Assembly: GCA_965656375.1 (NCBI GenBank)
Contig: CBFHKH010000001.1
Span: 409,319-473,318 of the forward strand
From: Minisyncoccia bacterium
GTDB taxonomy: Bacteria > Patescibacteriota > Minisyncoccia > Phycocordibacterales > UBA9973
Length of the DNA stretch: 64,000 bases
Direction of reading: 5' to 3'
Both the position numbers and the translations under genes were made by a program. Below the pieces are notes generated by a model. It was not told the DNA's origin. It worked only from the letters and a program-made list of their open reading frames with translations, and ran no database searches. Numbering within the stretch: position 1 is the stretch's first letter; each line of letters opens with the position of its first letter. Below, piece by piece: positions 4,290 through 61,366 of the stretch.

Positions 4290-4745
4290 TTAAAATGGAA
4301 TATCTTCAGCATTGATCTGTTCGTCTGGATATTCGATCGTATCGAGTGAATCATCTCCTGCCTGGGCAGGCAAGTCCTGCGGAGTAGTTCGAGGAGCGCT
4401 TGATCCCCCGCCCATACCACCACCGCCAAACTGAACTCGATCTGCGATAACTTCTGTACGATATTTCTTTGTACCAGTACCTGCATCATCCCAGGATCGT
4501 GTCTGCATGCGGCCTTCGATCATAACCTGCGAGCCCTTCTTCATATACTGGGCCACAGTCTCTGCCTGGCGACCGAATACAACGATATTGTGGTAATCCG
4601 CTGCTTCTTGCTTTGCACCGTTTTTATCTTTCCAGACACGGTTTGTCGCAATAGAGAAGCTGCATACCTTGATCCCTGAAGGAATCGCTTTGAGTTCCGG
4701 ATCACGGGTGAGGTTACCTATGAGCAATGCTTTGTTTAAATACAT
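4290..4745 (-). CDS. ssb: Single-stranded DNA-binding protein
   Basis: OB-fold N-terminus, Gly-rich linker and acidic C-terminal tail ending DIPF; rpsF-ssb-rpsR synteny. Confidence 0.9.
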   Translation of the reverse strand: MYLNKALLIGNLTRDPELKAIPSGIKVCSFSIATNRVWKDKNGAKQEAADYHNIVVFGRQAETVAQYMKKGSQVMIEGRMQTRSWDDAGTGTKKYRTEVIADRVQFGGGGMGGGSSAPRTTPQDLPAQAGDDSLDTIEYPDEQINAEDIPF

Positions 4746-10344: not shown

Positions 10345-11787
10345 TTAATCTTTGCGTAAGAAAAGTGGAGCTTCAGGCTTTTTATTTTCTTTGATCAATT
10401 TCTTAAGAGTTACATTTGTTTCTGGAAGTATCGGATTAAGCATTCGAGCTATCTGGTACAAGCGAAGCACGAGATCTGTGATAAGTTCTTTTCCTTTACT
10501 TTCATCAACTTTTACAACCTTGAACGGTTCAGTCTCTTGGATAGTCTTATCGAGTTCTGCGATTTCATTCCATATATAGTCAGCTGCCTTTTTTATATCG
10601 TACGCTTCATACATTTCAAAATAGTCCGCAAAATCTGATTTCTCAGGAATTTCTGGACATCTATCTAAATACTTCTCAGAAAGAGTTAGAATTCGTGAAG
10701 CCAAGTTTCCTAAACCGTTTGCAAGGCCTGAATTGTAGGCTTCTTTGAAGCGCTCTAGTGTAAATGGTGAATCTTCGAACGAAGATACTTCTCTAAGAAG
10801 GAAGTAGCGAAGTGCATCGGTGCTATATTCTTCTACGATATCTTTTGGATCAACCACATTACCGAGAGTCTTCGACATCTTGATACCTCCATCAGCTGTG
10901 ATGAAACCGTTCACGACTATCTGGTGTGAATTGGGCACATCTGCAGCCATGAGCATTGCCTGCCACATCGCAGATTGAAAACGAGTATTGTCCTTACCAC
11001 AATATTGCGTTGGCGTTCCCTCTATCCAATATTTTTTGAAATCCCCACCTTCGTTGGGCCAGCCAAGCGTATTGATATAATTGGTAAGCGCATCAAACCA
11101 CACATACATAACATGGTCTCTATCATCTGGTACCTCTATTCCCCACGGCATTTTGGTCTTGAGTCGAGAAATTGAGAAATCTTGAAGACCTCTTTCAACA
11201 AATGCTTTTATTTCATTGAAACGAAAATCCGGAACAACGAACGTCGGATTCTCTTCGTAGAATTTTAGTAACCGCGAACCGAACTCGCTGTATTTGAAAA
11301 AGTAATTCTCTTCTTCTATGAGCTCAAGTTCAATCCCCGGATGATCTGGGCAGTGACCATCTTCATTGAGCTCTGAATCAGTTTTCTCACTCTCACAACC
11401 GACACAGTATTTAGTTTGGTATGCCTTTTTATAGATGTATCCATTATCTCGAACTCGGACCCAAAATTCTCGGGCAGACTCTTCGTGGCGCACATCTGTC
11501 GTACGAATAAAGTGAATATCATCAGTGATACCAAATATTTTAATACTCTCCTTGAATGTCTCAAATCCCTGATCAACAAAAGCTTGCGTATCAATGCCTT
11601 TCTCTTTTGCCTTTTCATAAATCTTCATTCCATGTTCATCAGTACCAGTATTAAAAAATACATCATACCCAGCAAGCTTCTTGTATCGTGCGATCGCATC
11701 AGCACGAACAAATTCAAGCGCATGCCCCATATGAAGTGGCGCATTTACGTATGGAAGAGTAGTAGTAAGATAAAAGGTCTTCTGCAT
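10345..11787 (-). CDS. metG: Methionyl-tRNA synthetase (short form)
   Basis: HMGH (HIGH) and KMSKT (KMSKS) class-I motifs. The start is chosen at MQKTFY (ATG at 11785-11787) rather than the upstream in-frame extension. Confidence 0.9.
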   Translation of the reverse strand: MQKTFYLTTTLPYVNAPLHMGHALEFVRADAIARYKKLAGYDVFFNTGTDEHGMKIYEKAKEKGIDTQAFVDQGFETFKESIKIFGITDDIHFIRTTDVRHEESAREFWVRVRDNGYIYKKAYQTKYCVGCESEKTDSELNEDGHCPDHPGIELELIEEENYFFKYSEFGSRLLKFYEENPTFVVPDFRFNEIKAFVERGLQDFSISRLKTKMPWGIEVPDDRDHVMYVWFDALTNYINTLGWPNEGGDFKKYWIEGTPTQYCGKDNTRFQSAMWQAMLMAADVPNSHQIVVNGFITADGGIKMSKTLGNVVDPKDIVEEYSTDALRYFLLREVSSFEDSPFTLERFKEAYNSGLANGLGNLASRILTLSEKYLDRCPEIPEKSDFADYFEMYEAYDIKKAADYIWNEIAELDKTIQETEPFKVVKVDESKGKELITDLVLRLYQIARMLNPILPETNVTLKKLIKENKKPEAPLFLRKD

Positions 11788-48802: not shown

Positions 48803-49891
48803 CTATCGTTTTGTAGTGAAGGATACAGTTTTACCGTAGACTGTACCATGATCGTTCATACCAACAAGGCGATAATAATATTTTGTATTCGACGAAAGAT
48901 TGTTTACATTGATCTCTACCTCTTGTGTGTCCATACCAGAGAGTGTCCTCTTTGGAGTACCACTTCCTATCAAGTTTCCAAGAAGAGAGTCAGTACTATA
49001 CTCGAACCAATAGGTCGTCTGTGCATCATTTGGATTTATCCGTCCATTGAATACTGCATCAGAAGAGCTAATGCTGCTTGCATTTAGAGTCTCAACAGAT
49101 GGCTTGCTTGATTGCGCAGGGCCAGACGTAGTGAAATTCATAGTTGTTCCATTCACTGTACCGTACTGATTCTGTGCATTCAAGCGGAAGTAATATTTTG
49201 TAAGAGGTTCGAGTCCTGTGAGAGACATTGGAACAGACATAAATGTCGTACCTGAATTTGTAGCTCGGTATCCGGTTACAGACCCGAAGCTATTGTCCGT
49301 TCCGTATTCATACCAGTAGCTCGTGTCTGTACCATTTGGATTTACTTGGCCATTGATAGTAGCAGAGGTACGAGCAATATCACCTGCAGCATTTGTGCGC
49401 GTTGAAGGAGCTTTCGCCTGAGGTGGTGAGGTCATGTTTGTCTGGAAAGTATATGTAGTGCCATTCACAGTTCCGAATTTATTCTGTGCACTTAAGCGAT
49501 AGTAGTAGAGCGTGTTTGCTTTAAGACCTGTGATGAATGCAGGTGTTGGGGTAACATAATATCCTGAACCAATTGCTTGTGATGTACTCCGAGTGCCGAG
49601 TGCTGTTGTTTCCCCATATTCGTACCAGTATGTTGTAGCTGCTCCATTCGGCTTTACTGTTCCTGTGACTGCTGCAGTTGAGCTTGAAGTGTTGGCATTT
49701 GAATTTGTCACTACGATTGGTGCAGCTGGCGTTGCTACAGTCGAGGTTGGTGTGGGTGTAGTACCCTCTTCTGTAATAACAGGAAGTACTGTGGTATTGT
49801 CTACCATTACTTTATCTTTTGTTGATATATAGTATCCGAGTCCGATGATGATTATTAAGATCAATAATCCGATTACTGTATTTTTATTCAT
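48803..49891 (-). CDS. Membrane-anchored surface protein with three FN3-like NPNG..T.YW(F/Y)EYGT...YY(Y/F)RL.A.N repeats
   Basis: N-terminal TM, Thr/Pro linker, then three roughly 95-aa repeats of identical pattern. Confidence 0.7.
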   Translation of the reverse strand: MNKNTVIGLLILIIIIGLGYYISTKDKVMVDNTTVLPVITEEGTTPTPTSTVATPAAPIVVTNSNANTSSSTAAVTGTVKPNGAATTYWYEYGETTALGTRSTSQAIGSGYYVTPTPAFITGLKANTLYYYRLSAQNKFGTVNGTTYTFQTNMTSPPQAKAPSTRTNAAGDIARTSATINGQVNPNGTDTSYWYEYGTDNSFGSVTGYRATNSGTTFMSVPMSLTGLEPLTKYYFRLNAQNQYGTVNGTTMNFTTSGPAQSSKPSVETLNASSISSSDAVFNGRINPNDAQTTYWFEYSTDSLLGNLIGSGTPKRTLSGMDTQEVEINVNNLSSNTKYYYRLVGMNDHGTVYGKTVSFTTKR

Positions 49892-49970
49892 AAAATCAAA
49901 ATTAGTTAGTAAAATTACAATTATTTATAAATGAGTGCGACCTTTATACCTAATAAGCCTACCATGTAGG

Positions 49971-49997
49971 TAGACGGCCCAGTAATTACAATCTTAC
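49971..49997 (-). promoter_or_regulatory. ECF-type promoter GGTAAG-N16-CGTCTACC upstream of the FN3-repeat protein gene
   Basis: Minus-strand GTAAG (49993-49997), 16-nt spacer, CGTCTA (49971-49976). Same motif as three other sites in the window. Confidence 0.5.
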
Positions 49998-50023
49998 CAG
50001 TGAAAATAGGTACCTGAGTATCT

Positions 50024-50452
50024 TTATCTAAGTTTGCCTTGTTCGGTAAGCACTCTTTTAATATTGAAACGCATAGAGAGAATTCGCCCAAGCATGGCGC
50101 CTTCGATAAAACTAAATGTAAACGCAGAGAGGATCGCGCCAGTAAGCCAATGCTCAAAGATAAAATGGCGAGAAAAAGAGAATATAATATATAGCACGAG
50201 AACGACAATTCCTATCCTATCGAGTCTACCGATCACCTTTTCCTCTTCGGCATGCCATTCGATCGAGAACATTCGCCCAGCAATAAATCCTATCCCGACA
50301 CCAAGGAAAATCCCCAGGATTAAAAGAAGAATCTTGATATGGCTTATATATACTTCATATACAAGCACACCGGACATGATCGCGAGAATTACCACAAATA
50401 TTCTCAATCTCCGTATCAATTTCTTATCTACATGTACATGCTCATCTTGCAT
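50024..50452 (-). CDS. Hypothetical 4-TM membrane protein
   Basis: ORF with 4 hydrophobic helices, downstream of the sigma/anti-sigma pair. Confidence 0.5.
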   Translation of the reverse strand: MQDEHVHVDKKLIRRLRIFVVILAIMSGVLVYEVYISHIKILLLILGIFLGVGIGFIAGRMFSIEWHAEEEKVIGRLDRIGIVVLVLYIIFSFSRHFIFEHWLTGAILSAFTFSFIEGAMLGRILSMRFNIKRVLTEQGKLR

Positions 50453-50468
50453 GTATGTATTTTATCTT

Positions 50469-51509
50469 TTATCTCCACTCGTGTCTATTTTCGTCTGGAA
50501 ACGATTGTTCTTTGATGCTATTTCTATCACGTTTTGAATGAGTATTTTCTTCTTTCAATTGAAGTCCTGCTTTCAAAAAGATATCGGCTTCTGTAACTGA
50601 ATTTTCAGATTCAAGAAGCTTTGAGTATGCGTTCTCTTTATTTTCTTCGATATTGCCTTCATCAGACTCTTTCAACAGTTGTGCCGCCTGATCGAGTGTC
50701 TCCTGAGCGGTATTGATCACTCGTTGCTGCACTCGTGAATCCTTGCTCTCTGTACGATCTAGATTTTTATTTGTCGAATCTATGAGTGATTTAACCATTT
50801 CTTTTTTCTTGTTGTATCGTTCAGATGAATTGATCTCCTTGGTTTTCCAATTTGTTCGTATTGTATCGACGCTCGCACGAGCTGTCTTTGAGATCTCATT
50901 TCCTTCTGGTGTGTCTTCCTCTTTCTGATCAGAATCGATGATATCAAGAACTTTCGCATGGGCATTCATTCCCGCTTGGAAATTACGTACGATATCATCA
51001 ATTTTGTCCGATGATTTTTCTTTATCGAGCTCTATAAGACTTTTTTCCAAAGCCTTCGTATGAGTTTCCAAGAGGACAGCTATTTCTTTTTGCTTTGTCT
51101 CATCAAGGTTACCTGTCGAGGCAAGAGTCTCTGCTTCAACCATACGCTTTTTTGCACGGGTGCTTTCATATTCTGCTTTTGCTTCTTGTGAAAACGTAAG
51201 GCGAGCTCGAACAGGTTCTACAATATTTACTTTTACCGCATAGAGAGCGTCTCCCGGCAAACTCTCTTCTGAAGCAAATACTGCTTCTCGGCCGCCGACA
51301 AACACGATCAATAACATCGCAATACTTGCATAGAAAAAGCGATGCCGTTTTGAGAATATAAAAGAATACGACACCCATGAACTCTGTACTGGTTTTTTTA
51401 CAACTTGCGACGTACTCAAAATACGACCGAGCATGCGTTCTTTCTCAGCATCAGTCATGGTGATTTTTTTTATCTGTTGTATTCCTTTGTGTAATTTTTC
51501 GTCTTCCAT
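50469..51509 (-). CDS. Putative anti-sigma factor (DUF5667-like; single TM; LPGDALYAVK motif)
   Basis: Follows the ECF sigma with a 1-3 nt overlap. Cytoplasmic N-terminus, TM, then an extracytoplasmic domain with a PGD.LY motif and a Lys/Glu-rich tail. Confidence 0.55.
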   Translation of the reverse strand: MEDEKLHKGIQQIKKITMTDAEKERMLGRILSTSQVVKKPVQSSWVSYSFIFSKRHRFFYASIAMLLIVFVGGREAVFASEESLPGDALYAVKVNIVEPVRARLTFSQEAKAEYESTRAKKRMVEAETLASTGNLDETKQKEIAVLLETHTKALEKSLIELDKEKSSDKIDDIVRNFQAGMNAHAKVLDIIDSDQKEEDTPEGNEISKTARASVDTIRTNWKTKEINSSERYNKKKEMVKSLIDSTNKNLDRTESKDSRVQQRVINTAQETLDQAAQLLKESDEGNIEENKENAYSKLLESENSVTEADIFLKAGLQLKEENTHSKRDRNSIKEQSFPDENRHEWR

Positions 51510-51510
51510 T

Positions 51511-52038
51511 TTAATTTCCTTCTTCAATACTATACCCTGTCTTTTTTCGCAGCTCGAGCAATCCGCGATTAACCCGAACTGACGCTGCGTTGGCAGATAT
51601 GCCAAGACTTTCTCCTATCTCTCCTGGTGATAATCCTTCTACATACCGCAAATACACAGGATCTCGATATGTCGGAGACAATTCATTGATTTTCTCCAAG
51701 AGATATCTACCTTCTGGCCCAAGATCAAGATTGTCTGCTGTGCTCGCATCGATGACATCATACTCCCCCGTCTCTTCATCTGCCATTTTGCTGAACACAA
51801 TGCTCTTCTTCTTGCGATACCAGTCGATAATCAGGTGTCGAATGATGGTAAAGAGAAATGCTCTCGTATTTTGTATTTCATCCCCTTTTTGCATCGTTTG
51901 CCAGAGGCGAACAAAAGCTTCCTGGGTGATATCGAGAGCTTGCTCTCTATCAGACACGCGAGTCAAGCAAAATCGGAATAGGGTGTCTGACTCTGTAGTG
52001 TATATCTCTTCAAATGTATGGGTAATATCAGGTTTCAT
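51511..52038 (-). CDS. ECF-family RNA polymerase sigma factor
   Basis: Regions 2 and 4 (IIDWYRKKKS...LSPGEIGESLGISANAASVR). Paralogue of 60519-61031. Confidence 0.85.
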   Translation of the reverse strand: MKPDITHTFEEIYTTESDTLFRFCLTRVSDREQALDITQEAFVRLWQTMQKGDEIQNTRAFLFTIIRHLIIDWYRKKKSIVFSKMADEETGEYDVIDASTADNLDLGPEGRYLLEKINELSPTYRDPVYLRYVEGLSPGEIGESLGISANAASVRVNRGLLELRKKTGYSIEEGN

Positions 52039-52130
52039 TGGGAAAGACGAACAAAAGCGCTATTTCTTACGTACTCGTACGGCCGTTGCTATCTAGATAT
52101 AAAATACAATATATATCATCCAATGTCTAT

Positions 52131-52158
52131 GTAAGGAAAGAGAATAGAGCTCCGTCTA
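52131..52158 (+). promoter_or_regulatory. ECF-type promoter GTAAG-N17-CGTCTACC upstream of the PKD/FN3 protein gene
   Basis: Plus-strand GTAAG at 52131-52135 and CGTCTA at 52153-52158, followed by the palindrome tataggg-atatat-accctata (52166-52186). Confidence 0.45.
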
Positions 52159-52237
52159 CCATAGTATAGGTTACTTATAGGGATATATACCCTATAAAAA
52201 GCCTTCAAATTATCAAATTAATTGAGTAAATAAAATT

Positions 52238-53479
52238 ATGAAAAAAACAAAATTTATAACAAGTTCGCTTTTGATTCTATCCATGGCTATCGTGCCGTTC
52301 GTAAGTTCTGCGGATAATGGATTTCTTTTCCGTGGAGACGATAATAATCGCAGTATCCGAGTAGAAACTCGGGCTGACCTTGATGCGAAAGCAAAAGTAG
52401 ATCTAAAACATGAAAGTAATAAAAATAAAGAAGATAAAGATAAGGATCGAGATTCTCGTTCCAATAAATCAATCTTGGGTGCGTTATTTGGTTCATCTGA
52501 GAATCGCGTAAATGCAGAAGTAAAAGCAAATAGTAATGCGAGCTTTAACCGTAACAACATACCGATTATTTCTGGGATTACTGCTCCAACAATGTTGAAG
52601 GTTGGAGAAACAGGTACATGGACAGTAAATGCATCTGATTCATCTAATGGATCACTCTCATACTCAGTTAACTGGGGTGACAGAAAAGACGATAGTACTG
52701 CAAAGATGTCATCAGAATCATTTACTCAGACAAGTACATTTACCCATGCATATGCGAACCCGGGAACATACAAGATCGCATTCGCAGTTAAAAATAGTGC
52801 AGGGCTTTCAGCAGTTTCCACTACAACAGTCCGCGTAACAAGTACAAATACAGTTGCCGCACCAGTTATTAGTAATGTTTCTGTTACATCAACAAAGCCA
52901 CATCAGGCTACAGTAACATGGACTACAGATGTCCGTTCAACGAGCCTCGTTTGGTACAGCAAAACATCACCAGTTAACACTTCAGGAAATGCAAACATTG
53001 CTCGAAATTCATTCTGGAATTCTTTCTGGAACGTGAAGGGTCGTGATCACAAGGTTACTCTTACAAAACTAGAACCAGGTACGACATACTATGTAATAGT
53101 AGGTTCCGCAAATGCTTCTGGCAAGACTCTATCATCAGAAGTATCTGTAACAACACCTGCTCTTCCAAATTCAAGTAACGCACCAGTGATAACAAGCCTT
53201 ACAGGAAATACATCAGTAGTAGTGGGACAAACAGCAACAATTACAGTTAACGCCTATGATCCAGATAACGGTTCCCTTACCTACACAGCAGACTGGGGTG
53301 ATAACACAAGTTCTACATTCTCACTCAAAGCTGGCACTGATGTGTATACACAGACAAGCACATTTACCCACGTTTATGATGTAGCAGGTACATATAAAGC
53401 CACATTCACCGCACAAAACAGTAAAGGATTGAAAGCATCTTCATCAGTAAATATCACAGCACAAGCTGCTACTCAATAA
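52238..53479 (+). CDS. Secreted protein with two PKD domains flanking an FN3-like domain
   Basis: Signal peptide. The W.GDxxD...P.H.Y...GTYK pattern occurs twice (SYSVNWGDRKDD / YTADWGDNTSS); central VTWTT...YYVIV FN3-like domain. Confidence 0.75.
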   Translation: MKKTKFITSSLLILSMAIVPFVSSADNGFLFRGDDNNRSIRVETRADLDAKAKVDLKHESNKNKEDKDKDRDSRSNKSILGALFGSSENRVNAEVKANSNASFNRNNIPIISGITAPTMLKVGETGTWTVNASDSSNGSLSYSVNWGDRKDDSTAKMSSESFTQTSTFTHAYANPGTYKIAFAVKNSAGLSAVSTTTVRVTSTNTVAAPVISNVSVTSTKPHQATVTWTTDVRSTSLVWYSKTSPVNTSGNANIARNSFWNSFWNVKGRDHKVTLTKLEPGTTYYVIVGSANASGKTLSSEVSVTTPALPNSSNAPVITSLTGNTSVVVGQTATITVNAYDPDNGSLTYTADWGDNTSSTFSLKAGTDVYTQTSTFTHVYDVAGTYKATFTAQNSKGLKASSSVNITAQAATQ

Positions 53480-53527: not shown

Positions 53528-54040
53528 ATGATTACAACAGCAGGAATCTTTAGGACTCATTTAGAAGCAGAACGAGCAATCAATGAATTACACGCATTCG
53601 GTGTCGCTACAAGTGATATGTCATACGTATATATCGATGTTGATGGAGAAATAATCGATGCACACACAGATAGTAAAATAGGTTCAGGCCTTGCTTCTGG
53701 CGCAACGACAGGGTCAGTCCTTGGAGCAATCGCTGGCCTTGCTATCGCAAACGGCATCTTGCCAGGACTTGGTTCACTCATAGTAGCTGGACCACTCGCA
53801 GCAGCGCTCGGATTTACGGGTGTAGCAGCTACAACAGTAGCAGGTGCAGCTACGGGCGCAATGGCAGGAGGATTCATCGGGGCACTCAGCAATATGGGTG
53901 TAGAAAGTGCTGATGCAGCGATCTATGAGAACTCTGTCCGCTTAGGAGAAGTATTAGTCGTCGTAAAGTCACAAAATCTCGTTACAAAAGATATCTTCGA
54001 AAAAGCAGGGGCTCGCGAGATCAGAGAGTACATACATTAA
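53528..54040 (+). CDS. General stress protein YflT-like (DUF1269) with glycine-zipper membrane region
   Basis: N-terminus GIFRTHLEAERAINELHAFGV resembles B. subtilis YflT; central Gly/Ala-zipper repeats. Confidence 0.6.
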   Translation: MITTAGIFRTHLEAERAINELHAFGVATSDMSYVYIDVDGEIIDAHTDSKIGSGLASGATTGSVLGAIAGLAIANGILPGLGSLIVAGPLAAALGFTGVAATTVAGAATGAMAGGFIGALSNMGVESADAAIYENSVRLGEVLVVVKSQNLVTKDIFEKAGAREIREYIH

Positions 54041-59615: not shown

Positions 59616-60125
59616 TTATTCTTCTTCCTCGCTCTCTTCTTCGACTCGTTCAAGATTTTCCGTACAAGCTTCCGCAAGTTTTTCATCAGCTGCAACTTCT
59701 TCTTCGAGTGTCATTTCTAAAAGTTCTACTGCATCATCGAGTCCTAGATTCTGTGCTTCTTCTATAGCCCCCATATAACCAGCCATCTCGTAATGCTCTG
59801 CATATCGAGCAGCAGAAGCAAGCATACTATCTTTGAGAGCACTTGGTGCATCCAATTTCGCGACCCAGTCTCCATCTTTTATTATGCCTTTGATTCCTTC
59901 GCAAGTTACTTTCTTTGGTTTTTCCTCAAGAAGAGAAAATATTTTCTCTAATCTCATACTATGTTCTTTTGTTTCTTCTAAGTGGGAAAGAAACCCTTTT
60001 TTAAGAACAGGATCAGTAGATGCTTTTGCAAGTTTGGGAAGGGCTTTTTCGAGTTGTCTTTCTATATCATAGAGTGCTTGGATTTTTATAACGAATGCAC
60101 TTTCTGTGTCATTTATTTTTTTCAT
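59616..60125 (-). CDS. Ferritin-like DUF892 (YciE/YciF-family) stress protein
   Basis: ALYDIERQL...LSHLEETKEH..RLE pattern typical of YciF/YciE; acidic C-terminal tail. Confidence 0.65.
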   Translation of the reverse strand: MKKINDTESAFVIKIQALYDIERQLEKALPKLAKASTDPVLKKGFLSHLEETKEHSMRLEKIFSLLEEKPKKVTCEGIKGIIKDGDWVAKLDAPSALKDSMLASAARYAEHYEMAGYMGAIEEAQNLGLDDAVELLEMTLEEEVAADEKLAEACTENLERVEEESEEEE

Positions 60126-60211: not shown

Positions 60212-60249
60212 CTCAAGCAAAAAGCCACCGAAGTGGCTTTTTGCTTGAG
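60212..60249. terminator. Terminator hairpin (17-bp perfect stem) downstream of small protein 1
   Basis: ctcaagcaaaaagccac-cgaa-gtggctttttgcttgag. Confidence 0.6.
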
Positions 60250-60251
60250 AA

Positions 60252-60407
60252 TTATTCTCCGTCATTCATATTAGTGCCCTTGTTTTCACTACCAGAATTA
60301 TTTTCATTCCCATTGTTGCCATTATTTTGATTCTGGTTCTTATTCTCGTTCTCATTTTCATTTCGAGAGTCTGCGTCATTTCGAGTCTGATTGTTATTGT
60401 TTGCCAT
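60252..60407 (-). CDS. Small Asn-rich hydrophilic protein 1 (51 aa; MANNNNQTRNDADSRNENENENKNQNQNNGNNG...)
   Basis: ATG at 60405-60407, stop at 60252. ECF-type promoter and conserved 5'UTR upstream, strong terminator downstream. Paralogue of 61165-61287. Confidence 0.45.
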   Translation of the reverse strand: MANNNNQTRNDADSRNENENENKNQNQNNGNNGNENNSGSENKGTNMNDGE

Positions 60408-60473
60408 AAAATGTATTGAATGGTTATGGTTAGAAATCTAACCTCCTTATAATATTCGACCCTCGCACTAGAG

Positions 60474-60502
60474 TAGACGTGCGAGGGTGTGAAAGTCTTT
60501 CC
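60474..60502 (-). promoter_or_regulatory. ECF-type promoter GGAAAG-N17-CGTCTACT
   Basis: Minus-strand GGAAAG (60497-60502) and CGTCTA (60474-60479). The 5'UTR shares GGGTCGA.TATTA.AAG(G/A)AGGT with copy 2. Confidence 0.5.
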
Positions 60503-60518: not shown

Positions 60519-61031
60519 TTAATACTGATATCCGGATATTTTTCGAAGTGCGGTGAGCGCTTTACTGATACGTACTGATGCAGCATTTGCAGACACACCA
60601 AGTTTCTCTCCTATTTCTTTTGGAGATAGACCCATCATAAAGCGAAGGTTAAGTATTTCTTTATGCGTGTGAGTAAGTTCATTTACTTTCTGCCAGATAA
60701 GCCTCGATTCAGGCCCAAAGCTCAAATTGTCCATTGATTTTTCATCAATGACTTCATTCACAAATTCCCCCTCACTCATTTCTTCAAGAGATACGCTTTT
60801 TTTCTTGCGGTACCAATCAATGATAAGTCGACGGGTTATAGTGAATATATATGCTTTGCCATTCTTTATAGTCTTGCCAATTGAAAGGCTCTGCCACAGT
60901 CGCAAAAATGCTTCCTGACTGATGTCTTCTGCTTGCTCTTTATTGGATACACGTAACATACAGAATTTCATAATGAGTCCTGATGTTTCTTCGTATATCT
61001 TCTTAAATGTAATAACAATGTGTTTTCTCAT
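60519..61031 (-). CDS. ECF-family RNA polymerase sigma factor
   Basis: Regions 2 and 4; about 45% identical to 51511-52038 (IIDWYRKKKS, LSFGPE, GLSPKEIGEKLGVSANAASVR). Confidence 0.85.
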   Translation of the reverse strand: MRKHIVITFKKIYEETSGLIMKFCMLRVSNKEQAEDISQEAFLRLWQSLSIGKTIKNGKAYIFTITRRLIIDWYRKKKSVSLEEMSEGEFVNEVIDEKSMDNLSFGPESRLIWQKVNELTHTHKEILNLRFMMGLSPKEIGEKLGVSANAASVRISKALTALRKISGYQY

Positions 61032-61164: not shown

Positions 61165-61287
61165 TTATTTACCGCTTATATTTGAACCCCTTTCATTGCG
61201 ATTATTGTTTTTGTTCCTGTTATTTCCAGCTCTATTACGGTTAGCGCTTCTATTCTCAGAAGCATTTCGATTTTGATTGTTTGGCAT
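61165..61287 (-). CDS. Small Asn/Arg-rich hydrophilic protein 2 (40 aa; MPNNQNRNASENRSANRNRAGNNRNKNNNRNERGSNISGK)
   Basis: ATG at 61285-61287, with the same promoter/5'UTR architecture as protein 1. The ORF-track upstream extension was not used. Confidence 0.4.
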   Translation of the reverse strand: MPNNQNRNASENRSANRNRAGNNRNKNNNRNERGSNISGK

Positions 61288-61338: not shown

Positions 61339-61366
61339 TAGACGGGGTGGAAGTCGTATCCTTTCC
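61339..61366 (-). promoter_or_regulatory. ECF-type promoter GGAAAG-N16-CGTCTACT
   Basis: Minus-strand GGAAAG (61361-61366) and CGTCTA (61339-61344). Confidence 0.5.

Follow-up and report, generated by a model that had tools for sequence, protein, structure and literature searches.

Promoters that extracytoplasmic function (ECF) sigma factors recognize have a conserved -35 element, typically containing AAC, and a -10 element of the form CGT(C), and the autoregulation of these factors is used to infer their specificity (PMC5758882). In Bacillus subtilis, the promoters of sigma X, M, V, and W conform to tGnAAC-N16-17-CGTC/CGTA/CGAC (PMC5758882). The classification of ECF groups follows the same logic, in that specificity is defined by a conserved motif preceding the sigma operon (PMC7826278); its main text makes no mention of the candidate phyla radiation (CPR), Parcubacteria, or Patescibacteria. 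A limited search of the open-access literature also found no ECF regulon, ECF group, or promoter described in Paceibacteria or CPR. Here we describe a candidate promoter of this type from the uncultured Paceibacteria (Parcubacteria, CPR). It lies in a 64,000-nt stretch of the genome of a Minisyncoccia bacterium (contig CBFHKH010000001.1, positions 409,319 to 473,318), which we call the window and in which all positions are given. The site, on the minus strand at 49998-49971, precedes a gene for a surface protein with FN3 repeats, and its sequence and conservation make it very probable that it is a promoter read by an ECF sigma factor that belongs to the family of sigma 1, the factor encoded 2 kb away at 51511-52038.

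Read directly from the window sequence, the minus strand of positions 49998-49970 is GGTAAG-N16-CGTCTAC, and the sequence around it is ...ttttcactGGTAAGattgtaattactgggcCGTCTACctacATGgtaggc... The -35 element GGTAAG (49993-49998) contains GTAAG, the invariant core of the -35 in this promoter family. It is followed on the same strand by a 16-nt spacer (49992-49977) and the -10 hexamer CGTCTA (49971-49976), with a C next at 49970. The site is located in a 132-nt intergenic gap between the stop of a membrane-protein open reading frame (ORF; 50024-50452) and the ATG at 49891 of the minus-strand ORF 48803-49891. This predicted target gene encodes 362 amino acids with an N-terminal membrane anchor, a Thr/Pro linker, and three FN3/PhoD_N-like repeats. 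The site points toward it, with 80 nt between the hexamer and the ATG. An earlier note on this DNA had placed the motif between these two genes and within a 95-aa ORF (49921-50208), and the ORF map agrees on both counts. The sequence that it reported for 49971-49997 and its remaining coordinates are also correct, except that its start is 1 nt short. It had further claimed a leader of about 70 nt; a transcription start predicted from geometry at 49965 would give 74 nt.

Comparison with the B. subtilis systems reveals both likenesses and differences. The site has in common with the sigma X, M, V, and W promoters a bipartite structure, a spacer of 16-17 nt (here 16 nt, within an intergenic, gene-facing site), a CGTC-type -10 element (the CGT(C) is present as CGTCTA), and near-consensus sites. 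The wider systems share an autoregulated operon of sigma and anti-sigma factor (the anti-sigma factor being presumed here), paralogues whose specificities overlap, and envelope or surface targets. In contrast, the stretch after the -35 element is A-rich in the window family and T-rich in B. subtilis ECF promoters. The window family also differs in that its sigma mRNA is predicted to be leaderless, its targets have a leader module, and the DUF5667 partner of its sigma factor has no recognized anti-sigma domain. In addition, the window sigma factor passes only the superfamily model and not those for SigW, SigX, SigM, or SigV.

The motif is far more frequent in the window than chance would allow. 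All four copies that the earlier note listed exist, although one does not obey the pattern G[GT][AT]AAG that it had written for them. Apart from the FN3-gene site, these copies are GGAAAG-N17-CGTCTA at 60502-60474 and GGAAAG-N16-CGTCTA at 61366-61339, both on the minus strand, and TGTAAG-N17-CGTCTA at 52130-52158 on the plus strand, which mismatches the written pattern but matches G[AT]AAG. A fifth copy, CGTAAG-N16-CGTCTT at 52071-52044 (minus strand), stands directly before the sigma 1 gene and had been overlooked because the last base of its hexamer differs. The pattern G[AT]AAG-N16-17-CGTCTAC occurs four times in the window compared to 0.015 times expected from 200 dinucleotide shuffles, and the motif accounts for four of the window's five CGTCTAC heptamers. 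Since this pattern was set after seeing the data, we built a two-block position weight matrix (PWM) solely from sites of other genomes. The final G of the -35 element is invariant across its 44 training sites, and AAC or AAT variants are confined to distant lineages.

At a PWM threshold of 16 bits, the window has five matches with 0.23 expected, and all five are intergenic and gene-facing; at 20 bits, it has two with 0.023 expected. The FN3-gene site scores 21.1 bits, the site at 52130-52158 scores 26.0 bits, and the sites at 61339-61366 and 60474-60502 score 18.6 and 16.0 bits, respectively. These last two are counted as one event because they are paralogous copies. We then drew on 80 Paceibacteria genomic loci with a sigma 1 orthologue (48-68% identity). 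In these loci and the window together, 80 of the 89 matches of at least 15 bits are followed on the same strand by a gene start no more than 150 nt away. Just eight of the 89 (9%) fall inside a long ORF, compared to 71% of random positions, and at 20 bits or more this proportion drops to one of 46. Within the 80 loci and the window, the positional check that had been proposed for the motif, upstream of starts versus inside genes, therefore shows strong enrichment.

Both proteins proposed earlier as ECF sigma factors have the expected architecture. Sigma 1 (51511-52038, minus strand, 175 aa) and its paralogue sigma 2 (60519-61031, minus strand, 170 aa) consist of sigma-70 regions 2 and 4 only (Pfam Sigma70_r2 and Sigma70_r4/r4_2). 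They score 89 and 94 bits, respectively, against the ECF model TIGR02937, which has a cut-off of 42.9. Neither can be given a named ECF subfamily, as every NCBIfam subfamily or equivalog model, including SigW, SigX, SigM, and SigV, stays below its cut-off. The nearest relatives with solved structures are SigL, SigW, and SigE. Sigma 1 has 774 homologues, and their source names, where given, are Paceibacterota or Nomurabacteria, which places the organism, represented by an 840-kb contig, in the Paceibacteria/Nomurabacteria (CPR).

An indication of which factor reads the motif comes from the sigma 1 locus. In the window, the arrangement CGTAAG-N16-CGTCTT-tccca-ATG at 52071-52036 (minus strand) places a putative promoter of sigma 1 (52044-52071) with its hexamer only 5 nt from the start codon. 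Among the orthologous loci, G[TA]AA[GTC]-N16-17-CGxC.. occurs immediately before the sigma gene in 54 of 78. The distance from the end of the hexamer to the ATG is 5 nt in 43 of these 54 loci, 6 nt in 10, and 4 nt in one. This fixed spacing of 5-6 nt implies that the sigma gene is autoregulated and that its mRNA is leaderless, and the positive autoregulation so predicted extends from the window copy to the same 54 loci. The sigma-proximal -10 elements are mostly CGTCTT or CGTCAT, whereas the target promoters have CGTCTA. Because autoregulation is an accepted route to ECF specificity, the sigma 1 family is the best assignment for the motif.

A second conserved copy of the motif reads TGTCyATGTAAGAAA-N14-CGTCTAC on the strand opposite to the sigma gene and 80-110 nt upstream of that gene. 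In 47 of the 80 loci, its score reaches 15 bits or more and it is predicted to drive an orthologue of a PKD/FN3 protein; its window counterpart is the site at 52130-52158. The window gene that it faces (52238-53479, plus strand) encodes a secreted protein with a signal peptide and PKD and FN3 domains, and a homologue of this gene is divergent from the sigma gene in 50 of the 80 loci. On the other side of the sigma 1 gene, the ATG of a single-pass membrane protein (50469-51509, minus strand) follows the sigma stop by 1 nt. This protein has a sub-threshold match to DUF5667 (25.8 bits, cut-off 27), in 70 of the 80 loci the sigma gene has a homologue of it as its immediate downstream neighbor, and we presume that it is the anti-sigma factor of sigma 1. 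The suggestion that the cognate sigma factor is one of the two window paralogues is supported by these comparisons. They favor sigma 1, with the motif found before or divergent to its orthologues (54 of 78 and 47 of 80 loci), and sigma 1 is the better candidate because it has both a putative autoregulatory copy and a presumed anti-sigma partner.

A leaderless sigma mRNA fits the habits of the window genome itself. A Shine-Dalgarno (SD)-like sequence precedes just one of the 46 ATG genes in the window. In contrast, 20 of 45 window genes have a TAnnnT hexamer that stops 5-8 nt short of the ATG, compared to 5% of all ATG triplets, and in 14 of them the distance is exactly 6 nt. The genome seems to rely largely on leaderless mRNAs without SD pairing, and the anti-SD sequence has been lost in about half of Parcubacteria (PMC9297842). 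Our limited search of the open-access literature returned nothing specific on DUF5667 or on leaderless mRNAs in Patescibacteria. A sigma-70-like promoter, TAGACA-N17-TATTTT (52101-52129, minus strand), is also located upstream of the ECF-type promoter of sigma 1. Its TAGACA abuts the -35 element of the divergent promoter, which explains the TGTCyA that is conserved there in other genomes.

The best match of the sigma factor in the PDB is Mycobacterium SigL, together with SigW of B. subtilis (E about 4e-13). In mycobacteria, many genes lack leaders and keep the -10 element at a set spacing from the start codon, and the window genome resembles mycobacteria in this respect. The relationship to SigL and SigE is nevertheless a remote sequence similarity between different phyla, and in the window family it is the sigma mRNA that is predicted to be leaderless and the targets that have leaders.

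Orthologues of the FN3 gene retain the motif in some lineages. The closest (locus L006, 61% identity) is the only one among the genomic loci in which the FN3 gene is within reach, and it has TGTAAG-N16-CGTCTAC at an equal distance before the gene. In its alignment with the window, mainly the promoter blocks, the stretch around the upstream stop, and the start-codon region are kept, while the flanks have diverged. The FN3 gene lies beside the sigma operon in both genomes, but the gene between them is a different one in L006. A more distant set of FN3 orthologues was taken from 80 metagenomic loci (40-59% identity). We adopted a relaxed pattern for this set, with control windows alongside, after the strict PWM had failed and the sequences had been inspected. 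The relaxed form, G[TA]AA[GTC]-N16-17-CGTC[TA], precedes 18 of 65 distinct FN3 orthologues compared to 0.8% of 3,700 control windows. It is on the coding strand in all 18 cases and on the reverse strand in none. The lineage variants among these sites include GTAAT-N16-CGTCTTCAT and GTAAC-N16-CGTCAT, as well as GTAAT or GTAAC combined with CGTCTT. An ECF sigma gene is found within 4 kb of the FN3 orthologue in six of the metagenome loci.

The comparison of orthologous promoters that had been proposed as a check thus succeeds for L006 and for the relaxed motif, and it fails for the strict PWM. Judged from these sequences, the FN3 gene is predicted to belong to an ECF regulon recurrently, though not universally. 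No sigma-70-type -10 box was found 5-8 nt before the FN3 ATG in the window. Lacking such a box at leaderless distance, the gene probably depends on the ECF-type promoter.

Sigma 2 is 51% identical to sigma 1 and has, at its window locus, neither an adjacent anti-sigma gene nor an ECF-type promoter of its own. The promoter at 60474-60502 precedes a 51-aa Asn-rich ORF (60252-60407), and the promoter at 61339-61366 precedes a 40-aa one (61165-61287). Only one homologue, in locus L161 (64% identity), is closer to sigma 2 than the sigma 1 family is. Downstream of the L161 sigma gene are TGTAAG-N16-CGTCTAC, a AGGTCGAA box, a 38-aa Asn-rich ORF (4618-4734), and a terminator hairpin. Since this is the same arrangement, the module of sigma 2 and Asn-rich ORF is conserved, here with the canonical TGTAAG -35 element. 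The earlier proposal that the FN3 gene belongs to the same regulon as the Asn-rich proteins is strengthened by the fact that L161 keeps the link between ORF and promoter. All three Asn-rich ORFs are highly hydrophilic, and each follows an ECF-type promoter and ends at a strong hairpin (e.g., 60213-60249). A tblastn search of the 80 genomic loci found no homologues of them. Their neighbors in the window are stress-type genes, namely DUF892 (59616-60125), DoxX, and DUF2231. The -10 element of the 60474 promoter is surrounded by a 10-nt perfect inverted repeat, CCCTCGCAC...GTGCGAGGG (60457-60489, minus strand), and a weaker one surrounds that of the 61339 promoter.

Several observations weigh against reading the FN3-gene site as a promoter of the sigma 1 family. 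The AAC expected in an ECF -35 element is absent from it: its core is GTAAG, ending in AAG, as in the window family at large, and B. subtilis has an AAC core. None of the 75 distant FN3 orthologues searched with the strict PWM has a site of at least 14 bits, and 47 of the 65 distinct orthologues have no recognizable copy of the motif even in relaxed form, so membership of the regulon would be lineage-dependent. Some of the counts above come from the 80 loci that also served to train the PWM, although the sigma-proximal sites were outside the training set. Searches with Pfam and NCBIfam detected no known anti-sigma domain in 50469-51509, which is a putative anti-sigma factor by its synteny. A search of the minus strand from the membrane-protein gene to the FN3-gene site (50024-49998) found no terminator. 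Finally, the sequence does not separate the specificity of sigma 1 from that of sigma 2.

The ECF-type promoter might therefore be real and yet be read by sigma 2, or by both factors with overlapping regulons like those of B. subtilis sigma M, W, X, and V, an alternative that we hold to be possible rather than probable. The recognition helices of the two factors are nearly identical (SANAASVR in region 4 and IIDWYRKKKS in region 2), genes bearing the motif lie on both flanks of sigma 2, and the sigma 2 homologue in L161 is followed by another such gene. The first G of GGTAAG is shared with the GGAAAG sites, and for CGTC-type ECF promoters overlap in recognition is on record (PMC5758882). However, sigma 2 lacks an ECF-type promoter and an adjacent anti-sigma gene, and it is rare and lineage-specific, whereas the promoter class is present throughout genomes with sigma 1 orthologues. 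Beside the sigma 1 orthologues of L001, L034, L041, and L060, the divergent promoter likewise has GGTAAG, and the FN3 gene adjoins the sigma 1 operon both in the window and in L006. We accordingly prefer recognition by the sigma 1 family and note that the two regulons likely overlap, such that sigma 2 may read the FN3-gene site too.

Other explanations would deprive the motif of most or all of its role. The membrane-protein gene has its own sigma-70-like promoter, TAGACA-N17-TAAAAT (50459-50487, minus strand), which stops 6 nt short of the ATG at 50452. As no terminator-like hairpin intervenes, read-through could also express the FN3 gene. That read-through from this promoter or from the sigma operon is its main source of transcripts, with the motif playing a minor part, is nonetheless unlikely given that the motif keeps its exact spacing in L006 behind a different upstream gene, precedes 18 of 65 distant orthologues, and scores on par with the conserved divergent promoters. 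It is even harder to view the motif as an operator for some other DNA-binding protein or as a structured RNA that presents CGUCUAC in a hairpin loop, as could happen at 60474. The inverted repeats at 60474 and 61339 and the extra conservation downstream of the -10 element would suit such a role. Yet flanking complementarity is not general. Over 62 sites, the mean longest match between the spacer and the downstream sequence is 4.0 compared to 3.8 in shuffles, and we reject an operator or structured RNA as a general feature on this ground. No Rfam family reaches its gathering threshold in the window, and nothing meaningful appears at E<=5 around 49850-50050 or 52040-52300. In spacing (16-17 nt) and content, the two blocks also match ECF promoters, and the placement of the hexamer 5-6 nt from the sigma start codon is explained by a promoter and not by an operator. 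The slimmest chance of all is that the FN3-gene match is a coincidence or a decaying copy without function. Most distant FN3 orthologues do lack a recognizable motif, but just 0.023 matches of this strength are expected per window, the site is intergenic and correctly oriented, and L006 has kept it against diverged flanks.

From the sequence anatomy and its conservation, we infer how recognition by sigma 1 might operate. A weak leaderless promoter of its own (CGTAAG-N16-CGTCTT, 52071-52044) would supply sigma 1, and the co-translated DUF5667 membrane protein (50469-51509) would hold it until an extracytoplasmic signal releases the factor. Its region 4 would then bind GTAAG and its region 2 would bind CGTCTA 16 nt downstream, with transcription starting about 5-6 nt past the hexamer, at A49965. 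The resulting FN3 mRNA would have a 74-nt leader without an SD sequence, in which an AUG that opens a 14-codon mini-ORF comes first, an AGGUCG box follows, and the FN3 gene comes last. The divergent PKD/FN3 gene and the genes of the two Asn-rich mini-proteins would be driven by the same class of holoenzyme, and all of these targets would make up a small surface and stress regulon with positive autoregulation.

The leaders of the predicted targets have conserved features of their own. Beyond the -10 element, target promoters show extra conservation of the form CGTCTAC-yyyaw-TGTrAGGTCGy, which is absent at the promoter of the sigma gene. At the offset where the sigma gene has its leaderless ATG, 35 of 62 target sites have an NTG codon (ATG, TTG, or GTG), compared to 4.6% by chance. 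In 19 of those 35, the predicted +1 begins a bare start-stop pair (ATG-TAA, ATG-TGA, or TTG-TGA). Start codons at this position are also found at L006 5890, L008 5890, L010 5890, and others. In the window, the predicted +1 codon is ATG followed by 13 codons for the 49971 site, ATG with four for 61339, and GTG with 11 for 60474, while the site ending at 52158 has none. At the FN3 gene, geometry thus predicts a transcript that starts at A49965, 5 nt after the hexamer, with the 14-codon mini-ORF MVGLLGIKVALIYK and its stop (49921-49965, minus strand), which form the tail of the 95-aa ORF. The AGGTCG box lies inside it at 49938-49943 (minus strand) and is conserved after the -10 element in other genomes. 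Outside called ORFs, RGGTCG occurs in the window only at 49943 and 60462 (60457-60462), both beside ECF-type promoters, and a third instance, read by hand, is located beside the 61339 promoter (61329-61324, minus strand).

In the window and other genomes, what usually comes after the RGGTCG(A) box is a hairpin whose sequence varies (mean -7.1 kcal/mol compared to -3.6 kcal/mol for shuffles) and then a ATTATTAG-like stretch. Its distance from the -10 element is about 5 to 40 nt in FN3 leaders. The box is present in many loci (e.g., L010 5880s, L013 3441, and L036 2251), close to where leadered mRNAs are predicted to begin, and follows not only ECF-type promoters but also TATAAT-type promoters in the leaders of unrelated genes. 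Strand bias was counted in 478 co-directional intergenic gaps, as the full set of upstream regions is confounded by divergent gene pairs. There, RGGTCG is biased to the sense strand (41 versus 18), and GGTCGA and AGGTCG are the two commonest of 120 composition-matched hexamers. A role as a sigma-dependent, -10-like pause element of the ECF promoter is weakened by the occurrence of the box after TATAAT promoters and by a distance that varies over about 0-40 nt; a role as coding sequence of the mini-ORF is rejected because the reading frame is not conserved. In light of its variable distance and its presence after TATAAT promoters, we treat the box as an RNA-level leader element that is not part of the promoter. 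A 16S rRNA 3' end with which AGGUCG might pair was not found in the window or in 160 loci.

As a speculative proposal for a genome in which most mRNAs appear to be leaderless, the start codon at +1, the RGGUCG(A) box, and the hairpin could constitute an undescribed 5' module by which the minority of mRNAs with leaders load or park ribosomes or have their 5' ends shielded. In Gram-positive bacteria, 5' ends of mRNAs can be stabilized against RNase J by an SD-like STAB-SD element or by a 5' hairpin. The window-family leaders are similar in that they have a purine-rich AGGUCG box about 5-30 nt from the predicted 5' end and then a hairpin. They differ in that AGGUCG is not a full SD complement and the window genome appears to make no use of SD sequences. 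CPR genomes do retain RNase J (PMC12641178). If this proposal is true, then the leader module would be a new translation or stability signal that is separate from the promoter.

A few further features of these loci deserve mention. The PKD/FN3 protein (52238-53479) has a weak similarity to the NCBIfam model CPR_pilus_PamR that is far below threshold (39 bits, cut-off 300) and probably reflects shared Ig-like domains only. A YflT-like gene (53528-54040) is located directly downstream of the PKD/FN3 gene, further from the Asn-rich ORFs. In five genomes, a perfect DnaA-box-like sequence, GTTATCCACA, occurs just upstream of the TTGnTATAAT promoter of a gene for an MscS-like membrane protein (L011 ~6950, L013 ~3500, L021 ~6085, L025 ~5655, and L036 ~2310; minus strand), and two copies of GTTATCCACA are present upstream of an FN3 orthologue in L082 (~3850). 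In L005 (~11540-11610, plus strand), a leader that opens with TATATA-N13-AGGTCG contains about ten tandem copies of ACGAATT.

Taken at the level of sequence, this analysis supports the view that an uncultured CPR lineage possesses an ECF-type promoter together with a small conserved regulon. The mechanism that we envisage is textbook ECF signaling, so the biological surprise is limited. The analysis does offer a promoter consensus, TGTAAGAAA-N13-CGTC(T)(A/T), together with a predicted cognate pair of ECF sigma factor and membrane partner that is present in many genomes and a first set of targets, consisting of FN3/PKD-repeat surface proteins and tiny Asn-rich proteins. Even without experiments, the likely transcription start follows from the leaderless autoregulatory layout. 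The sigma factor and its promoter might serve as an orthogonal pair for synthetic-biology toolkits, and the consensus could let the regulons of these bacteria be read straight from metagenome-assembled genomes.

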